DNA of 64,000 bases from Marinigracilibium pacificum (GCF_012926615.1 NZ_JABBNU010000010.1:114629-178628); one strand, 5' to 3'. Numbered from the stretch's first letter, positions 5,720 through 33,240 are shown. Numbers and translations are program-made. Notes: a model not told the origin generated them from the letters alone.

Positions 5720-5995
5720 TTACTCTGAGTCTCCGTCATCATCTGATGATGGATGCTCACCTTCTGGGTGTTCTCCTTCAGGATGCTCACCTGCCGGATG
5801 TTCCTCATGAGTGCTATCTGATGAATGTTCGTGATCATCTGAATGATGCTCCGTTGACTCCTCAACTTGCTCTGTAACATCATCAGTATCGCTAGACTCT
5901 TCCTTAGCTGTTCCGCAAGAACCTAAAGTTATCACCATAAAAAATGCCATAGCCAAAAGACTAGTGCTTAATGATTTGAATTTTTTAGTAATCAT
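5720..5995 (-). CDS. small His/Glu-rich lipoprotein with tandem EHP(E/A)G repeats (putative periplasmic metal-binding)
   Basis: Lipobox LGSC. C-terminal EHPAGEHPEGEHPEGEHP repeats plus HHSDDHEHSSDSTHEEH. Confidence 0.5.
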   Translation of the reverse strand: MITKKFKSLSTSLLAMAFFMVITLGSCGTAKEESSDTDDVTEQVEESTEHHSDDHEHSSDSTHEEHPAGEHPEGEHPEGEHPSSDDDGDSE

Positions 5996-9049: not shown

Positions 9050-12000
9050 ATGCTATCAAACCTGATTAAATTTGAATTTTATTACCAAAGAAAGCAATTA
9101 ACATTAGTTGTTTTATCTCTGGTATTCATGCTTATTGGTTTACGTTTGGGCAGCCAGGGATTTTCTCCTGCTGATGTAAACTATGATTCATTTTACCAAA
9201 TTGGTTATATAACCGGAATCATGACACTGGGAATCCCCTTTATAGTTATGTTCTTTACAATCAGCGGTATAATTAGAGATAAAAAGCACCATTTTGAACA
9301 AATCATTTATAGTACATCTGTAAATAAGTCCCAATATTTCTTCAGCAGATTATCAGGAATACTTGTTTTTAGCATATTATGTTTTAGTCCATTTCTGATT
9401 GGCTTTTATCTGGGCACATTTTACCCTGGCTTAGATCCTGAAAAAATTTCCGGTTTCAATTTCTATAGCTATTTCAGCAATTGGTTCATTTTTATAATTC
9501 CGAATGTATTCATTTGCACTGCATTTATATTTACTGTATCACTTTTAAGCAAAAATGCTTTAGCTACATATGTAACAGGAATTTTGATCTATGCTATTTA
9601 TATGATGAGCTCATTAGTATTGAATTCACCAATAATGGCCCAATCAATACCTTCAACTCCTGAAGGACTCATGATTGCATCATTGGCTGATCCGTTTGGT
9701 CTGGCTGCCTTCTTTGAACAAACTCAATATTGGACTCCTTTTCAAAAAAATAATCAACCGATACAGTTCGTAGGATTCTTATTATGGAACAGAGTGATCT
9801 GGTTACTCATATCCATTGTGATTCTATATGTGGGCTACAATTATTTCTCATTTCGAAAAATCAATAAGAAATCTAAAAGAAATAAAATCAAAACAGAGCC
9901 AATTCCAAGTGTATCTTATAATTCGGTTTCACCAAACCAGTCGTTAATGATGAAATTTCTGATTATGAAATCTTTAATCAAATCAGATTTAAGCTTCATT
10001 TTCAGAAACCTGCCATTTATAGGAATTATGATAATCTGGGTAACTATGGTGATCGCAGAAAACTATGCCAGAATTGTTGATGGAGGGGAATATAACAATA
10101 GTATGTACCCAACAACTAGTCTTTTAATTGGTCATTTCACAAACATCCTGACATTTATATCACTTATATTGATCGTTTTTTATAGTGGAGAATTAGCCTG
10201 GAGAAATAAGGAAAGCAAAATAAATGAAATTATTGATTCAACACCTGTTTCAAACTATCAGATATTCATTTCCAAGCTTATAGTCTTAATAAGCCTGCCT
10301 TTTTCATTAATTCTTTCAGGAATAATCTTATCAATTTGCTTTCAATTATATCTGGGTTTTTATGAATTTAAATTGCCCCTTTATCTTTCAACATTTTATT
10401 TTTATGGTTTAAGACTATTATTCTATTGTTTTTTGGCGATATTTATAACGCAGTTAGTGTCAAAAAAATATCTGGCAATCGGAATCACAGCTGTTTTAAT
10501 AATACTTTTTGGAAGTTTTCCTGAGTACATAGGTATTAATACTCCACTTTTAAAGCTAGGTCTGGCCCCTATACCATCATATACCAATTTAAATGGCTTT
10601 AGTATTTCCTCCGAAGCTTTTCATTATTATGCCTGGTACTGGATATCTTTTGGATTACTCCTGTCAATTATTGCGTTTCAATTATTAAACCGAGGATATT
10701 CATCTTTAAAATTCCGGTTTTCGAGTATCAAATGGAATAAAAATCGACGGGTATTTAGCATTCTGGTAATAATTAGCTTTGTGGCCTCTGCAACAACAAT
10801 TCACTATCAGGTAAATATCAAGAACAAATACCTTTCAGTTACTGACATACTTGATCGAAAGGAACAGTATGAAAGAAAATTTAAACAATACGACAGCTTG
10901 AAAAGATTGAATCATCAGTCATGGAAAACAGTTATTGACCTGTACCCTACCGAACATCGTTATTCCGTAAAAGCCAAACATCAATTACAAAATAAGAATG
11001 AAGTCCCGGTTTACAAGGCTTTTATTAACGAACGCACAAAACTTTCTCATCTGGAGATTGAAAGAGGTTTGATTACCGATTATGATTCAATCCATGGCAC
11101 CTACATAATAGAGTTCAGGGATGGAATTTTACCTGGCGAAATAATTACCATGGAATATGCTTTGGAAAAAACATCCACTGGTTTCGATCCTGATAGATCA
11201 ATAATTGAAAATGGTAGCTACATCACTTTCAGGGATTTTGAACTAATGCTAGGATATAGTAGTTCCAAAGAAATAGAAAATGCCTTTGAACGAAAAAAGC
11301 GAGGTTTACCAGCAAAATTGACTATCCATGGAGATGAGCATCTTATAACCAGTGAGAGTAATGTTGAAAAAATCCCTTTTGAAACAATTATTTCTACTGA
11401 GGATGATCAAACAGCTATTGGCCCCGGAGATTTAATTAATCAATGGACAAGCAATGGAAGAAATTATTATCAATATAAAACTCCAGTTAAAGTAATTCCA
11501 ACTGTAGGTTATTTTTCAGCTAGGTATGGTTCACAAATGGATAATCACAGGGGAATTTCTATCGAACTATTTTATCATCCTGAACATGTCTATAATATTG
11601 ACCTTATTGAAGAAAGCGTAAAGCATACATTGGATTATTGCCTTGATAATTTTGGTCCTTACCCTTTTGATCATATTAGAATTGCCGAAATACCGGGACA
11701 TTGGCCTTTTGGTGGATTTAGCCATCCTGGAACAATCAGTATGGTTGAGGATCGCCTGTATTTAGTTGATGTCAGAAATACAGAGACCTTCAATCTGGTA
11801 GCCAAACGTACAATTCATGAGGTGGCTCATCAATGGTGGGGAGGTATTTTGACACCTAAAATTGTTGAGGGAGGTTCAATTTTCGTAGAAGGTTTTGCAA
11901 AATATACTGAGTCGGTAGTTATAGAAAAAATGTATGGCAAAGGAGCAAGCTGGCAGATTGCAAAAACAGCAAATGACACTTATTTCAAAGGTAGAGCTTA

Positions 12001-16234: not shown

Positions 16235-16825
16235 TCAAAAATTCCCTTTGATAATATCATCATCAGTATCAAACTTCATGTCTTCACCTGAAGATATAAT
16301 TTGATACTTATCTTTTTCAATTAGGATATATTTATACTCATTGCCCCAGTAATCTGTGATCCAGTTTTTCCTTACAGGCTTTGCACTGGCAAATTTTATA
16401 TAGTCTTCAGGATATGAATTGTTTCTTGAATAATACCTTTCCAGTCCACCGGTAATTTCGTCCATTTCATTTATCGTATTCTTCTCATTGAAGTATACAT
16501 TTTCTGAAATTCCTAACCCTGATGAAATTGTTGAGTAACCTATTACGAAAAATACTGGTATTATTAAAAATAAAAGGATAAAAGTAAACCCTATTCCTTT
16601 CAATGCAGCGGCATTACCATCTCGATTTTTTATAATAAAAAACAAATCAACCAAAGACCAGATTAAAATAACTCCTGCAGTGACATATAAATAAAACCCT
16701 TCTAAAAGTAGAAAAGCCAATGCAAGTAAGGCTACCATAAAAATGCCTTTTAACACCTTTTTAACAATGATTTGTCCAAGACCAGGGATTACTAATGAAA
16801 GTAAAAATGGCAAAATGTATTTCAT
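16235..16825 (-). CDS. polytopic membrane protein with C-terminal GspG-like (T2SS pseudopilin) domain
   Basis: C-terminus YPEDY...AKPVRKNWITDYWGNEYKYIL...ISSGEDMKFDTDDDIIKGNF parallels the GspG core (YP...DPWGNxY...SLGxDG...DI). N-terminus has 3-4 TM helices instead of a prepilin leader. Confidence 0.45.
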   Translation of the reverse strand: MKYILPFLLSLVIPGLGQIIVKKVLKGIFMVALLALAFLLLEGFYLYVTAGVILIWSLVDLFFIIKNRDGNAAALKGIGFTFILLFLIIPVFFVIGYSTISSGLGISENVYFNEKNTINEMDEITGGLERYYSRNNSYPEDYIKFASAKPVRKNWITDYWGNEYKYILIEKDKYQIISSGEDMKFDTDDDIIKGNF

Positions 16826-17357
16826 AAAAAATCAGTTGATAATGACTAAAAAACTATTGTCTTCAAATTCCGGATCAATAATACATAATTAAAAGTTTAC
16901 TTTCAAAAGTGAATAAAAAAGTAATTCCTAAAACCTACTCTAAAATGAATCTGACTTAACAACAGATTTATCCCAATATGTTGTCTCTCCGTTTGTCAAA
17001 GGTATTGGTTAGAATTATACATTTTTATGGCTTAATTATATTCCCGCTCTCAACTGAAAATGGATCCCCTATTCCCGACATTTTGTTTTTACATGAAATA
17101 TTTAAACCTGAAATATCATTGTTCTTATTTTTTCGGTTATAAGTAAACATCAGCAAAGCTACCTCCAAACGCTTTTATTAAACTAAATGATAGAATATCA
17201 TATTAACCCACATATTAAGTATTCTAAATATAAAGAGGTAATTTAGCTATTCAATTTTATAAAGAACCTTAAATAATAATAGTTATGACTTGTCATCATA
17301 GAAGATTATAAATAATTTTGAATAAACGTTCTTTACTTGATTTCTTAATCAAAAGTG

Positions 17358-17565
17358 ATTGCGGTTCCCTCCAATTTGATTGGTAGGGATTAAAAGGGAA
17401 TTCATGTGACCGGATTATTTCCGGAATTCATGAGCTGACGCGCAACTGTGATTCTGACCTTTACAATTTATTTGTAATAAGATGTTATTATCTTGATGCC
17501 ATTGTACAATTATCAAATGTATGAGAAGGCTGATAATAATCAGATAAGCCAGGAGACCTGCCATA
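17358..17565 (+). ncRNA. cobalamin (AdoCbl) riboswitch
   Basis: AAAAGGGAAttcatGTGaccggattatttccggAATtcatGAGCTGACGCGCAACTGTga is nearly colinear with the E. coli btuB leader core (AGGGAATCCAGTGCGAATCTGGAGCTGACGCGCAGCGG). 3' B12-box AAGCCAGGAGACCTGCC at ~17547-17563. Confidence 0.85.
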
Positions 17566-17707
17566 ATCCACCTAATATTTTAGGAATTGACATTACTTTC
17601 GCGATTTAGAGTAATTAATGCTGTTCACCAAAACATCTTGAACAACCATTTTCTTTCTCTTAAAAGTAATGTGAAGTTAGGCTAAGAGCTTTATAAAAAG
17701 CTTAATT

Positions 17708-18184
17708 ATGACCTATATTAACATCCCCAGAATCCCACTTCATTGCTGGGATATTATTTCTTTAATGGAGGCAGTCCGTAGAAACGAAAAATCTAAGGAT
17801 TTAAATGCTTTAACACAATTAAAATCTAAATTAAGATGGAAATCAAACCCAGAAAAACTCCTGAGATCCCACTATCATGCGATTGTCCTGACTGATTACA
17901 AATTAAATATACATTGGGTAAATCAGGGATTTACCAAAATGACAGGATATAATTCTAAAGAGATCATCGGTAATACTCCTGCAATGTTTCAAGGAAGATT
18001 AAGCCTAAGGTCAACAAACAAAAAAATTCGAAGACAACTTTCAACTGGCAAACCTTTTACCGAGAGAGTGATCAACTACAAGAAAAATGGCCAGATCTAT
18101 ACCTGTGAATTAAACATTTTTCCTCTTCGAAATAAGAATAATCAAGTATCTCACTTTTTAGCATTAGAAAAAGAAATCTTATGA
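17708..18184 (+). CDS. stand-alone PAS-domain protein
   Basis: 158 aa. AIVLTDYKLNIHWVNQGFTKMTGYNSKEIIGNTPAMFQG...KNGQIYTCELNIFPL is a typical PAS S-box. No output domain. Confidence 0.6.
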   Translation: MTYINIPRIPLHCWDIISLMEAVRRNEKSKDLNALTQLKSKLRWKSNPEKLLRSHYHAIVLTDYKLNIHWVNQGFTKMTGYNSKEIIGNTPAMFQGRLSLRSTNKKIRRQLSTGKPFTERVINYKKNGQIYTCELNIFPLRNKNNQVSHFLALEKEIL

Positions 18185-18567
18185 CATTGACAAATAGAAT
18201 AAATAATTGTAGAACAAGCATCTTCAAAGCGGTATTTCCTTCAACCACAAATCACTATGATACCTTATTCGGAGGAACAGCTATGCAATTAATGGATGAA
18301 GTAGCTTTTATCACGGCAACCCGTTTTAGCCGTCAAAAAATGGTAACTGTAAGCAGTGATAAAATTGATTTCACCAAACCCATACCTGCCGGAACCTTTG
18401 TAGAACTTGTTGGAAATGTGGTAAAAGTCGGAACTAGTAGCTTAAAAATTGAAGTTGATGTTTTTATCGAAGAAATGTATTCGGAAAAACGAGAATCAGC
18501 CATTAAAGGACTATTTACTTTCGTTGCAATTGATGATGATAAAAAGCCAACTAAGCTTAATTATTAG
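18181..18567 (+). CDS. acyl-CoA thioesterase (hotdog fold, YciA/BFIT-like)
   Basis: HYDTLFGGTAMQLMDEVAFITATRF...VTVSSDKIDFTKPIPAG matches the 4HBT/acyl-CoA hydrolase pattern. ATGA overlap with the PAS gene. Confidence 0.7.
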   Translation: MTLTNRINNCRTSIFKAVFPSTTNHYDTLFGGTAMQLMDEVAFITATRFSRQKMVTVSSDKIDFTKPIPAGTFVELVGNVVKVGTSSLKIEVDVFIEEMYSEKRESAIKGLFTFVAIDDDKKPTKLNY

Positions 18568-19962: not shown

Positions 19963-20697
19963 ATGAAGTTAAATCAGGAATATATATCAACTATTGAGCT
20001 GGAACATCAACTCTGGAAATTACGAATGAGTCAATCGCCTTCTTTGATAAATAAAGCAACTAAAGATCTCCAGCATAAAATCAATACACTTATTCCCGAC
20101 AAAGTTCATGATGTCATTACCAAAGCTATAAAAGAGATAACACGAGCGGTAATATTCGGAGCTGAGTACTCTACATTCAAGCAAAGAAATTTTGCCACAC
20201 TTTCCGATGCCGAACTTTTTGCTCAAAAAAGAATTGATTTCTACGCATCCTCTTCAGCAGCCGAAGGAGCAATTACCGGTTTTGGTGGCTTTATTTCCGG
20301 GTTAGCAGACTTTCCTCTTTGGCTATCACTAAAAATGAAAATGTTATTTGAATTAGCTAACAGTTATGGATATGACATCACAGATTATAAGGAGCGTTTG
20401 TATATTCTTCATATCTTTCAATTAACATTTTCAAGCCAAAAAAACCGTAATAAGCTATTTGAAATCATGAAAAACTGGGAAGAAAATTCTGAAACTCTCC
20501 CTGCTGACATTAATGACTTTGACTGGAAAACGTTCCAACTTGAATATCGTGATTTTATTGACCTGGCAAAGCTAATTCAGTTAATCCCTGGCGTTGGGGC
20601 CATAGCAGGTGCATATGTTAATCACAAATACACCAAAATGCTGGGACGATATGCTATGAATGCCTACCGTATGCGACTAGACATCATGGGCACCTGA
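19963..20697 (+). CDS. EcsC-family protein
   Basis: AAEGAITGFGGFISGLADFPLWLSLKMKMLFELANSYGYD...IPGVGAIAGAYVNHKYTKMLG resembles EcsC (PF12787). Confidence 0.45.
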   Translation: MKLNQEYISTIELEHQLWKLRMSQSPSLINKATKDLQHKINTLIPDKVHDVITKAIKEITRAVIFGAEYSTFKQRNFATLSDAELFAQKRIDFYASSSAAEGAITGFGGFISGLADFPLWLSLKMKMLFELANSYGYDITDYKERLYILHIFQLTFSSQKNRNKLFEIMKNWEENSETLPADINDFDWKTFQLEYRDFIDLAKLIQLIPGVGAIAGAYVNHKYTKMLGRYAMNAYRMRLDIMGT

Positions 20698-20925
20698 ATA
20701 TGAAGGATCTGTCTCATACATTTCATCTATTTGATTTTTATACTTTTCTTCAATTACTCTTCTTTTTAATTTAAGTGTCGGTGTTAATTCTGCTTCATGC
20801 CCATTTGATTGCATAAAAGTCCATGGAATTGAAATGAGCTTAAATTTTTTAATCTTTTCTGTATGACTAAGACCTTCATTTACCTTGGAAACGATTTCAT
20901 GGTAATGATCTATCACTCTGGGCAA
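20677..20925 (-). pseudogene. remnant: C-terminal ~70 aa of an AMP-dependent acyl-CoA synthetase (FadD-like)
   Basis: NGHEAELTPTLKLKRRVIEEKY is the conserved extreme C-terminus of long-chain acyl-CoA ligases. No upstream AMP-binding domain. Confidence 0.6.
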
Positions 20926-21188
20926 TTGAATAATATCAGATAATTAACTGCAAAACAACAAAGAGCTGTCATCATCCTCCAGACCGCTAATGATATACTT
21001 ACAATATTAACCCTGTTGCTTTTATCAGCCCGTCGTGCTAATGTAATTCCGAGAATTACATAGAAAAAAGCAAATGCAAGTCCTGTTAATAAACCCAATT
21101 GTGTATCTGACAGACCTAATTCCAGCTTAACAGACTCCTGAAGAATCACAAGTATTTTGCCGATCAATAAAACCAAAAATATAAACAC
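20913..21188 (-). pseudogene. remnant: N-terminal ~90 aa of an MFS transporter
   Basis: LGLSDTQLGLLTGLAFAFFY...LARRADKSNRVNI (MFS motif A) then a premature stop after about 3 TM. Confidence 0.6.
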
Positions 21189-21261
21189 CAGTCAGAGCTA
21201 ATAAAATATACTTTTTATACCCTTTACTATAACTTTCACGGCTGATAGTTGCTTCTATGGT

Positions 21262-21440
21262 TTCCATATTTATAAGTCAGGGGAAAGGATTAAGTCTGGT
21301 TTGCTCAGATGAAGAGTTATCAAACACCCGCTTGTCTATATCATAAATAAAAACAGAAAAACCACTGATAGCAGCCCGAAGACCAATACGTGTCCCCATT
21401 GTACCGCCCCCTAGAATTGTCACAGTTTTAATTTCATTTG
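21262..21440 (-). pseudogene. remnant: N-terminal NAD-binding segment of a 3-hydroxyacyl-CoA dehydrogenase
   Basis: Hand-translated MITDPNEIKTVTILGGGTMGTRIGLRAAISGFSVFIYDIDK (Rossmann GxGxxG of HADH/FadB N-terminus), then divergence and a stop at ~59 aa. Not in the ORF track (below length cut-off). Confidence 0.5.
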
Positions 21441-21458
21441 GATCAGTTATCATAATTA

Positions 21459-32990: not shown

Positions 32991-33156
32991 AATGGTGGGA
33001 ATCATTTTTGCCAAAACACAGCATATCCTTACGGATACTATGGAGCCATACAGAGACTCTCATCAGGTTATTTTGGTTATATATTCCCTTCGCTTTTCAC
33101 TCTGTGAAAAGATCTTTAGTGCTGAAAGCACAATATTTTATCAAAGAACAATCTTG

Positions 33157-33240
33157 TGGGGAAGACAGGAATCGAACCTGCTCAGCCATAAAGCACCGGA
33201 TTTACAGTCCGGCCCAACTCTCCATCTTTGGCGCTTCCCC
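33157..33240 (-). tRNA. tRNA-Tyr (anticodon GTA), type II with long variable arm
   Basis: Minus strand GGGGAAG-CG-CCAA-AGATGGAGAG-TTGG-G-CCGGA-CTGTAAA-TCCGG-(14-nt variable arm)-GCAGG-TTCGATT-CCTGT-CTTCCCC-A. All stems pair. Confidence 0.85.

Follow-up and report, generated by a model that had tools for sequence, protein, structure and literature searches.

In nearly all cobalamin (vitamin B12) riboswitches, binding of the ligand stabilizes a kissing interaction between loops L5 and L13 together with helix P13, and expression is switched off. The textbook genes repressed in this way encode MetE, class I ribonucleotide reductase and BtuB-type receptors, and new B12 biology has repeatedly come to light in genes behind cobalamin riboswitches, among it transporters, proteins that bind B12 at the cell surface and isozymes that do not depend on B12. 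Here we describe such a riboswitch in a 64-kb stretch of DNA from Marinigracilibium pacificum (Cytophagales, Flammeovirgaceae), the whole of which we call the window, where the genes that follow encode a PAS-domain protein and an acyl-CoA thioesterase. We conclude, with a probability of roughly 0.8, that a functional long-form riboswitch heads a two-gene PAS-thioesterase transcript that belongs to the low-B12 gene set, and that this layout was left after the loss of metE.

Running cmscan with Rfam over the full window returned a match to RF00174 on the plus strand at 17345-17579, scoring 75.2 bits against a gathering score of 31.5 bits (44 bits over threshold; E = 1e-16) and covering model positions 1-189 of 189 without truncation. 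The sole other Rfam or ARAGORN match in the 64 kb was a single tRNA-Tyr (GTA) at 33156-33240 on the minus strand. The leader also holds a GGGAA...GAGCTGACGCGCAACTGT core, the last base of which is 17449. Judged by the Rfam model, the element is a genuine, full-length cobalamin riboswitch, and as a riboswitch it is ordinary. The leader and the two genes behind it are laid out as follows.

17290-17320, plus strand: candidate Bacteroidota-type promoter, with TTG at 17290-17292, a 20-nt spacer and the -7 box TAATTTTG at 17313-17320
17345-17579, plus strand: cobalamin riboswitch aptamer, long form with P6 extension (RF00174, cmscan)
17438-17443, plus strand: L5 loop ACGCGC, the proposed kissing-loop partner, inside GCTGACGCGCAACTGT, a motif kept in relatives
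17546-17562, plus strand: B12 box AAGCCAGGAGACCTGCC (J6/3), identical to the box of relatives
17587-17604, plus strand: putative P13 5' strand (TTG-ACATTACTTT) followed by the L13 motif CGCGA, from a conserved block and the minimum-free-energy fold
17617-17650, plus strand: weak terminator-like hairpin with a U-rich tract at 17649-17661, within the P13 insertion, from the minimum-free-energy fold
17663-17686, plus strand: putative P13 3' strand (AAAGTAATGT-GAA) and the conserved block GTGAAGTTAGGCTAAG, ending about 20 nt 5' of the start codon
17708-18184, plus strand: LOV-like PAS protein of 158 aa without the photoactive cysteine (exact match to WP_169683530.1, Marinigracilibium pacificum)
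18181-18567, plus strand: YciA-like hotdog acyl-CoA thioesterase of 128 aa (exact match to WP_169683532.1, Marinigracilibium pacificum)

Transcription probably starts at the Bacteroidota-type promoter about 25 nt 5' of the aptamer. The consensus used is established for Bacteroides and Flavobacterium promoters; its TAnnTTTG element occurs once on the plus strand within 16800-17720, as the TAATTTTG box, and the same scan found no such box in the aptamer-PAS interval. The box likewise lies just 5' of the aptamer in 17 of 21 related loci. A sigma-70 promoter and generic terminator scan gave background-level signals only, the method being ill-suited to Bacteroidota.

Downstream of the aptamer, the CGCG of L5 (17439-17442) is complementary to the CGCG of L13 (17600-17603). 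The block that holds this L13 motif, TGAC-n6-CTTTCGCGA, is kept in six related loci (L010, L016, L034, L081, L033 and L011, numbered as in the locus set described below). P13 would form by pairing of 17587-17599 with 17663-17675, the two strands lying directly 5' of the CTTTCGCGA motif and of the GTGAAGTT block, respectively, and the 3' block aligns both with the block ahead of metE (L010, L026, L034) and with that ahead of the PAS gene (L016). The paired strands covary across loci:

Window: 5' strand CAUUACUUU, 3' strand AAAGUAAUG
L010: 5' strand CCGGGCUUU, 3' strand GAAGCCCGG
L016: 5' strand CAAUGCUCU, 3' strand AGGGUGUUG
L034: 5' strand CAAUGC, 3' strand GCAUUG
L033: 5' strand UAUGCUU, 3' strand AAGCAUA

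At the level of sequence, both the L5-L13 complementarity and the P13 helix of the RF00174 expression platform are thus present in the window. P13 is a simple hairpin in L016 and in the flavobacterial leaders, whereas that of the window surrounds a 63-nt insertion. The terminator-like hairpin at 17617-17661, part of this insertion, went unflagged in the generic terminator scan, and comparable hairpins followed by CUUCUUUAU occur in two flavobacterial leaders (L011, L018). Folding of the leader fits neither termination nor translation control better than the other.

The first gene of the transcript encodes a protein that matches PAS_9 with E = 3e-15. The solved structures nearest to a profile of 58 family members are light-oxygen-voltage (LOV) domains, led by YtvA (E = 1e-21) and followed by CagFbFP and the phototropins. 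An AlphaFold2 model (mean predicted local distance difference test score 92.6, predicted template-modelling score 0.82) comprises a 30-residue N-terminal helix and a PAS core, and all of its top Foldseek matches are LOV domains, the best with a root-mean-square deviation (rmsd) of 1.3 Å over 102 residues. The pocket is altered throughout the family, as residue counts over the 58 sequences show. The position of the adduct cysteine of YtvA (Cys62, in GXNCRFLQG) is Pro in 57 of 58 members, the window protein reading GNTPAMFQG; the N104 position is Cys and the Q123 position Glu in all 58; and an invariant His occupies the Tyr118 position. The phosphate-binding R63 is retained in 14 of 58 and is Ala in the window protein, and the equivalents of N94 and Q66 are retained. 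In all, 17 residues are invariant, among them Cys133 at the N104 site, Glu154 at the Q123 site and likewise His149, and a PLxCWD motif at the N-terminus is particular to the family. The 17 invariant residues and the mean model score of 92.6 mark the PAS gene as one under selection. Membership among LOV/YtvA photoreceptors was considered and rejected, with the defining cysteine and two flavin-contact residues replaced and a score of 69 bits against the YtvA-family model (cut-off 250). By these comparisons the domain is LOV-derived, with a pocket remodelled around invariant residues, and is not a LOV photoreceptor. A profile search at E <= 1e-10 gave 446 clusters, and among the 120 matches listed every supplied name was a generic PAS-domain label.

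The second gene overlaps the first by 4 nt (ATGA) and is predicted to be translationally coupled to it. Its product matches 4HBT (PF03061) with E = 3e-17 and 63 bits (cut-off 20.6); its top NCBIfam model is YciA, at 62.2 bits and under the equivalog cut-off of 162, and its closest Protein Data Bank (PDB) matches are the acyl-CoA hydrolases 2gvh and 2eis. On these scores the enzyme is related to YciA, not equivalent to it. A convergent GT1-type glycosyltransferase gene on the minus strand closes the unit; because its 3' end overlaps that of the thioesterase gene by 4 nt (18564-18567), no space is left for a terminator between the two.

An earlier, sequence-only reading of this stretch had proposed an adenosylcobalamin (AdoCbl) riboswitch in the leader, and the RF00174 score above gathering bears this out; the core and B12 box that it quoted are both present. 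Its leader start of 17358 does fall in the riboswitch, but the aptamer begins 13 nt earlier. Its stand-alone 158-aa PAS protein holds, and can now be sharpened to a cysteine-less LOV-like domain, as does its thioesterase joined by an ATGA overlap. It had also described the targets as non-canonical, and neither protein falls in the metE, nrd, btuB or cob families. The label of "lipid-metabolic" that it gave the module, which touches the thioesterase, found no support from any test made.

An exact look-up of the window PAS protein among contigs gave no record. A single-sequence search retrieved only six metagenome homologues of the PAS protein, at 40-52% identity, and Rfam detected no riboswitch in any of their loci, whether at the gathering score or with E <= 5; one of these homologues lies directly 3' of cobT-cobS-cobC. 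These six loci alone would have implied a one-off arrangement, an idea overturned when an alignment of the first homologues was run against one genome per species and 80 loci were fetched, mostly from Flavobacteriaceae and Cytophagales, each with the PAS homologue placed on the plus strand. We looked for riboswitches in these loci (about 0.9 Mb) with a fuzzy B12-box search and two nhmmer profiles made from confirmed aptamers, followed by Rfam, and for neighbouring genes by calling open reading frames (ORFs), clustering them and running Pfam on cluster representatives. Riboswitch-like sequence was found in 33 of the 80 loci. In 31, Rfam confirmed a co-directional cobalamin riboswitch 5' of the PAS gene (29 RF00174 and two RF01689, AdoCbl-II), and two further loci have one by nhmmer only. 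All 33 matches lie upstream of the PAS gene and are co-directional with it; profile matches on the opposite strand or downstream of the gene were absent from the 0.9 Mb. Four architectures recur:

(a) PAS immediately behind the riboswitch: about 20 loci, among them Algibacter, Wocania, Flavivirga, Jejuia, Hyunsoonleella, Seonamhaeicola and a Crocinitomicaceae metagenome-assembled genome (MAG)
(b) riboswitch, metE, PAS: L010, L034, L046, L049, L052, L081
(c) riboswitch, TonB-dependent receptor (btuB-like), with or without a DUF5074 lipoprotein, PAS: L029, L031, L036, L038
(d) AdoCbl-II riboswitch, nrdB, nrdA, PAS: L065, L074, with the thioesterase next in L065 only

In architecture (a) the next gene is frequently convergent, so that PAS is the sole regulated gene; L016 (Cytophagales MAG UBA9432) has riboswitch, PAS and thioesterase in the order of the window. 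Architecture (b) continues with the thioesterase in L010, a MAG from the window's own family, Flammeovirgaceae, and in L034; in the three Emticicia loci (L046, L049, L052) the next gene encodes a PF01902 protein. PAS is the distal gene of riboswitch-headed metE, nrdBA or btuB-like operons in 12 related loci. The thioesterase gene lies directly 3' of PAS in 10 loci besides the window (11 in all), and the 4-nt overlap is seen in five pairs (window, L016, L034, L065, L072). Because the family is found behind riboswitches together with metE, nrdBA and BtuB-type receptors, it travels with the low-B12 gene set, of which it is, by this genomic association, a recurrent member in Bacteroidota.

The aptamers themselves differ. 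Those directly before PAS in Flavobacteriaceae (L011-L028 and others, at about 5725-5911) are short, about 130 nt; in the sole short-form alignment shown, that of the L052 metE leader, the P6 extension is mostly missing. Leaders of Cytophagales are of the long form (190-235 nt) except in Emticicia, which has short metE leaders (135-143 nt), and the AdoCbl-II (RF01689) leaders are Christiangramia nrd leaders. Several aptamer subtypes are thus wired to the PAS family and may differ in corrinoid selectivity.

Other features of these loci are recorded here for completeness. A protein of about 250 aa with a PF01902 domain (Diphthami_syn_2, Dph6-like and ATP-binding), in a cluster of 22, is encoded near PAS in many loci (L029, L036-L038, L040, L041, L043, L044, L046, L048, L049, L051-L053, L057, L058, L062 and others) in either orientation, and directly after it in eight. 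A DUF6122 membrane protein is encoded 3' of PAS in most Tenacibaculum loci. We know of no B12 link for either protein. In L081 (Chryseolinea lacunae) the gene for a Cys_rich_CWC protein of 77 aa lies between metE and PAS (5724-5957). L072 (Bizionia myxarmorum) has a Bacteroidete tryptophan peptide leader (RF01692, 64.7 bits) at 11353-11479, about 5 kb 3' of PAS and probably unrelated. In L002, a long near-perfect palindrome at a contig end (2317-2505) gives a sub-threshold MIR396 score on both strands and probably reflects an assembly artefact or an inverted repeat. L001 carries, at 5750-5900 and 5' of its PAS homologue, a degenerate short cobalamin riboswitch (nhmmer E = 1e-4) that has no Rfam match even at E <= 5; mutations have altered P4, L5, the B12 box and the L13 motif, the promoter box TATCTTTG survives, and the element looks like a riboswitch in decay.

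Through three blocks, the window leader can be aligned to those ahead of metE in L010, L026 and L034 and to the one ahead of PAS in L016:

Block 1, promoter-proximal: GTTCTTTACTTGATTTCTTAATCAAAA
Block 2: TTGAC-n-CTTTCGCGA
Block 3, just 5' of the first start codon: GTGAAGTT-AGC-AAG-GCTTT

L026 and L010 share 83% DNA identity, and about 1.9 kb of metE is gone in L026 (5420-5710, against 3560-5920 in L010). What is left is a 95-aa remnant that matches MetE residues 626-704 at 82% identity, with the riboswitch and the PAS-thioesterase pair intact. The deletion is a direct example of the passage from riboswitch-metE-PAS-thioesterase to riboswitch-PAS-thioesterase, L026 being a MAG, so that an assembly artefact is conceivable. 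Since the window leader is homologous to metE leaders of other Cytophagales and metE is deleted in place in L026, the window layout most likely arose from the ancestral Cytophagales operon (riboswitch, metE, PAS, thioesterase) by loss of metE at this position; the reverse path within Cytophagales, insertion of metE, appears less parsimonious. The 128-nt spacer between the aptamer and PAS holds no metE remnant and the 64 kb no metE by tblastn, and a tblastn search of the window for remnants of metE, btuB, DUF5074 and PF01902 yielded no match with an E-value below 0.2. Three short adjacent ORFs, clustered about 2 kb away from the operon, read as pseudogene scars:

20677-21453, minus strand: gene fragments, namely the C-terminal part of an AMP-binding enzyme (82 aa) and the N-terminal parts of an MFS transporter (91 aa) and of a 3-hydroxyacyl-CoA dehydrogenase (3HCDH, 58 aa)

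Several observations weigh against a working riboswitch that governs a conserved PAS module. The window aptamer scores below most long-form relatives (75 bits against 79-106, the exception being L026 with 61), its P1 has non-canonical pairs and one of its hairpins an insertion. Neither a strong intrinsic terminator nor a strong sequestering structure could be made out in the leader, the generic scan staying at background. The window PAS protein departs from the family at two nearly invariant pocket positions (F93 to M, L94 to F). Across the family, 47 of the 80 loci had no riboswitch detected within the 6-kb reach of the search, and 12 loci without an nhmmer match were all negative on recheck in Rfam. 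On this count, B12 control is not obligatory for the PAS family.

The first of these points would also fit a riboswitch that is a decaying orphan, a relic of metE loss, with PAS and the thioesterase expressed independently of B12. That metE stands between riboswitch and PAS in relatives and is under deletion in L026, that a decayed riboswitch does exist 5' of the PAS homologue in L001, and that pseudogene scars lie near the window operon all speak for such a relic. We nevertheless consider it unlikely. The aptamer is full length and 44 bits over threshold; its B12 box is exact and its L5/L13 complement intact; the expression platform is kept up to the start-codon region; and the stretch between aptamer and PAS offers no promoter box from which the pair could be expressed. 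Moreover, PAS is the sole gene behind the riboswitch in about 20 species and, for that reason, a selected riboswitch target in its own right. The sequence-only reading had left the choice between a novel B12-responsive module and a riboswitch orphaned after loss of its original target, citing gene-fragment scars elsewhere in the window, which are indeed there at 20677-21453. Both halves survive in part: the module is recurrent, and the original target, metE, was probably lost. It is the word "orphaned" that fails, PAS, and often the thioesterase too, being the conserved target across four operon types and two aptamer classes; because PAS recurs downstream in 31 of 80 species loci, the riboswitch is wired to real regulon members. 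Those same 31 loci answer whether orthologues, too, are preceded by the element. Where that reading looked to btuB at this position in relatives, several other Cytophagales carry metE, and a btuB-like receptor is found in L029, L031, L036 and L038.

Less probable still is that PAS and the thioesterase are passengers, brought to the 3' ends of B12 operons by chance or operon drift and functionally unrelated to B12. More than half of the family loci are without a detectable riboswitch, and neighbours vary widely (DUF2400, DUF6122, the PF01902 protein), both of which speak for this reading. Against it stand PAS behind two aptamer classes and four operon types in two bacterial classes (Cytophagia and Flavobacteriia), 33 of 33 riboswitch matches upstream and co-directional with none elsewhere in the loci, and about 20 loci in which PAS is the only gene behind the riboswitch. 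Finally, B12 riboswitch RNAs act in trans in Listeria and Enterococcus, and the weak hairpin and U-rich tract at 17617-17661 would suit a riboswitch that mainly yields a short terminated RNA of this kind, with PAS-thioesterase expression a by-product, but this is highly improbable, as the leader runs into a block conserved to the first start codon in relatives, metE or PAS alike, no partner target is evident, and the arrangement is that of ordinary cis-acting metE, nrd and btuB leaders.

Returning to the riboswitch as a functional head of the operon, we propose that transcription from the Bacteroidota-type promoter would yield a two-gene transcript encoding PAS and the thioesterase. With cobalamin bound, the CGCG of L5 would kiss that of L13, and the kiss would lock P13, whose 3' strand sits about 30 nt 5' of the PAS start, so that expression drops; PAS and thioesterase would then be produced under B12 scarcity. 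We infer this off-switch logic from the behaviour of other cobalamin riboswitches. Because it is found with metE, with nrdBA, with the receptor and DUF5074 genes, with cobTSC and often alone, the PAS family looks like a general component of the B12-scarcity response rather than the partner of one enzyme. The protein may be a small-ligand or redox sensor that would detect its ligand in the remodelled pocket and act by protein contacts, so as to adjust metabolism while B12-dependent enzymes idle, and the translationally coupled thioesterase is a candidate partner, which could free CoA from acyl-CoAs that accumulate while B12-dependent acyl-CoA mutases idle.

More tentatively, and with the odds well against it, the cysteine-less LOV-like protein might serve specifically as an effector of B12 scarcity, have an unusual ligand or function and control partner enzymes that include the coupled thioesterase. 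In one version it would sense light or redox state independently of B12 and step in where B12-dependent sensing or metabolism fails; in another it would bind a small corrinoid-related molecule, such as a benzimidazole lower ligand or a flavin derivative, by way of Cys133 and Glu154.

Flavobacteriaceae and Cytophagales, which carry this family, are abundant marine bacteria. In literature searches whose coverage excluded most subscription journals, we found no paper joining riboswitch, B12, PAS domain and metE, none joining cobalamin riboswitch, thioesterase and PAS or describing the PAS family, and no report of a thioesterase coupled to PAS under B12-riboswitch control; 15 papers in which riboswitch, cobalamin and PAS domain occur together appeared unrelated, and a transcriptome paper on Flavobacterium psychrophilum mentions a riboswitch only ahead of a TonB-dependent transporter. 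As far as the searchable literature shows, the placing of a cysteine-less LOV-like family in the cobalamin-riboswitch set of Bacteroidota is therefore new, and so is the explanation of the window's non-canonical context through loss of a proximal metE, an earlier mention in a comparative-genomics table being conceivable. Dozens of Flavobacteriaceae and Cytophagales thus connect B12 riboswitches with a family of at least 446 clusters, annotated merely as "PAS domain-containing protein", whose members resemble blue-light LOV sensors with a conserved rebuilding of the chromophore pocket. Should PAS act as a sensor or regulator whose synthesis is confined to B12 scarcity, it would form a protein-level signalling branch of the B12 response, and if the effector proposal is true, B12 status would be linked to PAS-domain signalling in marine Bacteroidota. 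Deletion of the proximal gene is also a route by which a riboswitch comes to stand before "non-canonical" genes, which is relevant to how riboswitch gene contexts are read.

Set beside the described systems, the window is familiar in its parts. With long-form RF00174 riboswitches such as those of E. coli btuB and the Bacteroidota metE leaders, it shares the full aptamer consensus, the B12 box, the L5/L13 complementarity and a 5'-leader position ahead of a co-directional operon. It differs in that P13 holds the 63-nt insertion, that Shine-Dalgarno sequestration is not evident in the leader, as is expected for Bacteroidota, and that the first gene encodes a PAS protein and not a transporter, a biosynthesis enzyme or a B12-independent isozyme. 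The PAS protein has the single LOV-type PAS core and N-terminal helix of short LOV photoreceptors (the YtvA LOV core, PpSB1-LOV, DsLOV, Meiothermus MrLOV), at a Foldseek rmsd of 1.3-1.5 Å and 27-31% identity and with the FLQG motif retained, whereas its family has replaced Cys62 by Pro, Asn104 by Cys, Gln123 by Glu and Tyr118 by His and has not conserved Arg63. Like the YciA/ACOT-type hotdog thioesterases, the second protein has a 4HBT domain, YciA as its best model and acyl-CoA hydrolases as PDB relatives; unlike theirs, its gene is coupled to a PAS gene and stands behind a B12 riboswitch. In the classical low-B12 operons (metE, nrdAB, btuB) of related loci, the PAS gene is co-directional and distal; in the window the canonical genes are absent, and the distal PAS-thioesterase module stands alone behind the riboswitch.

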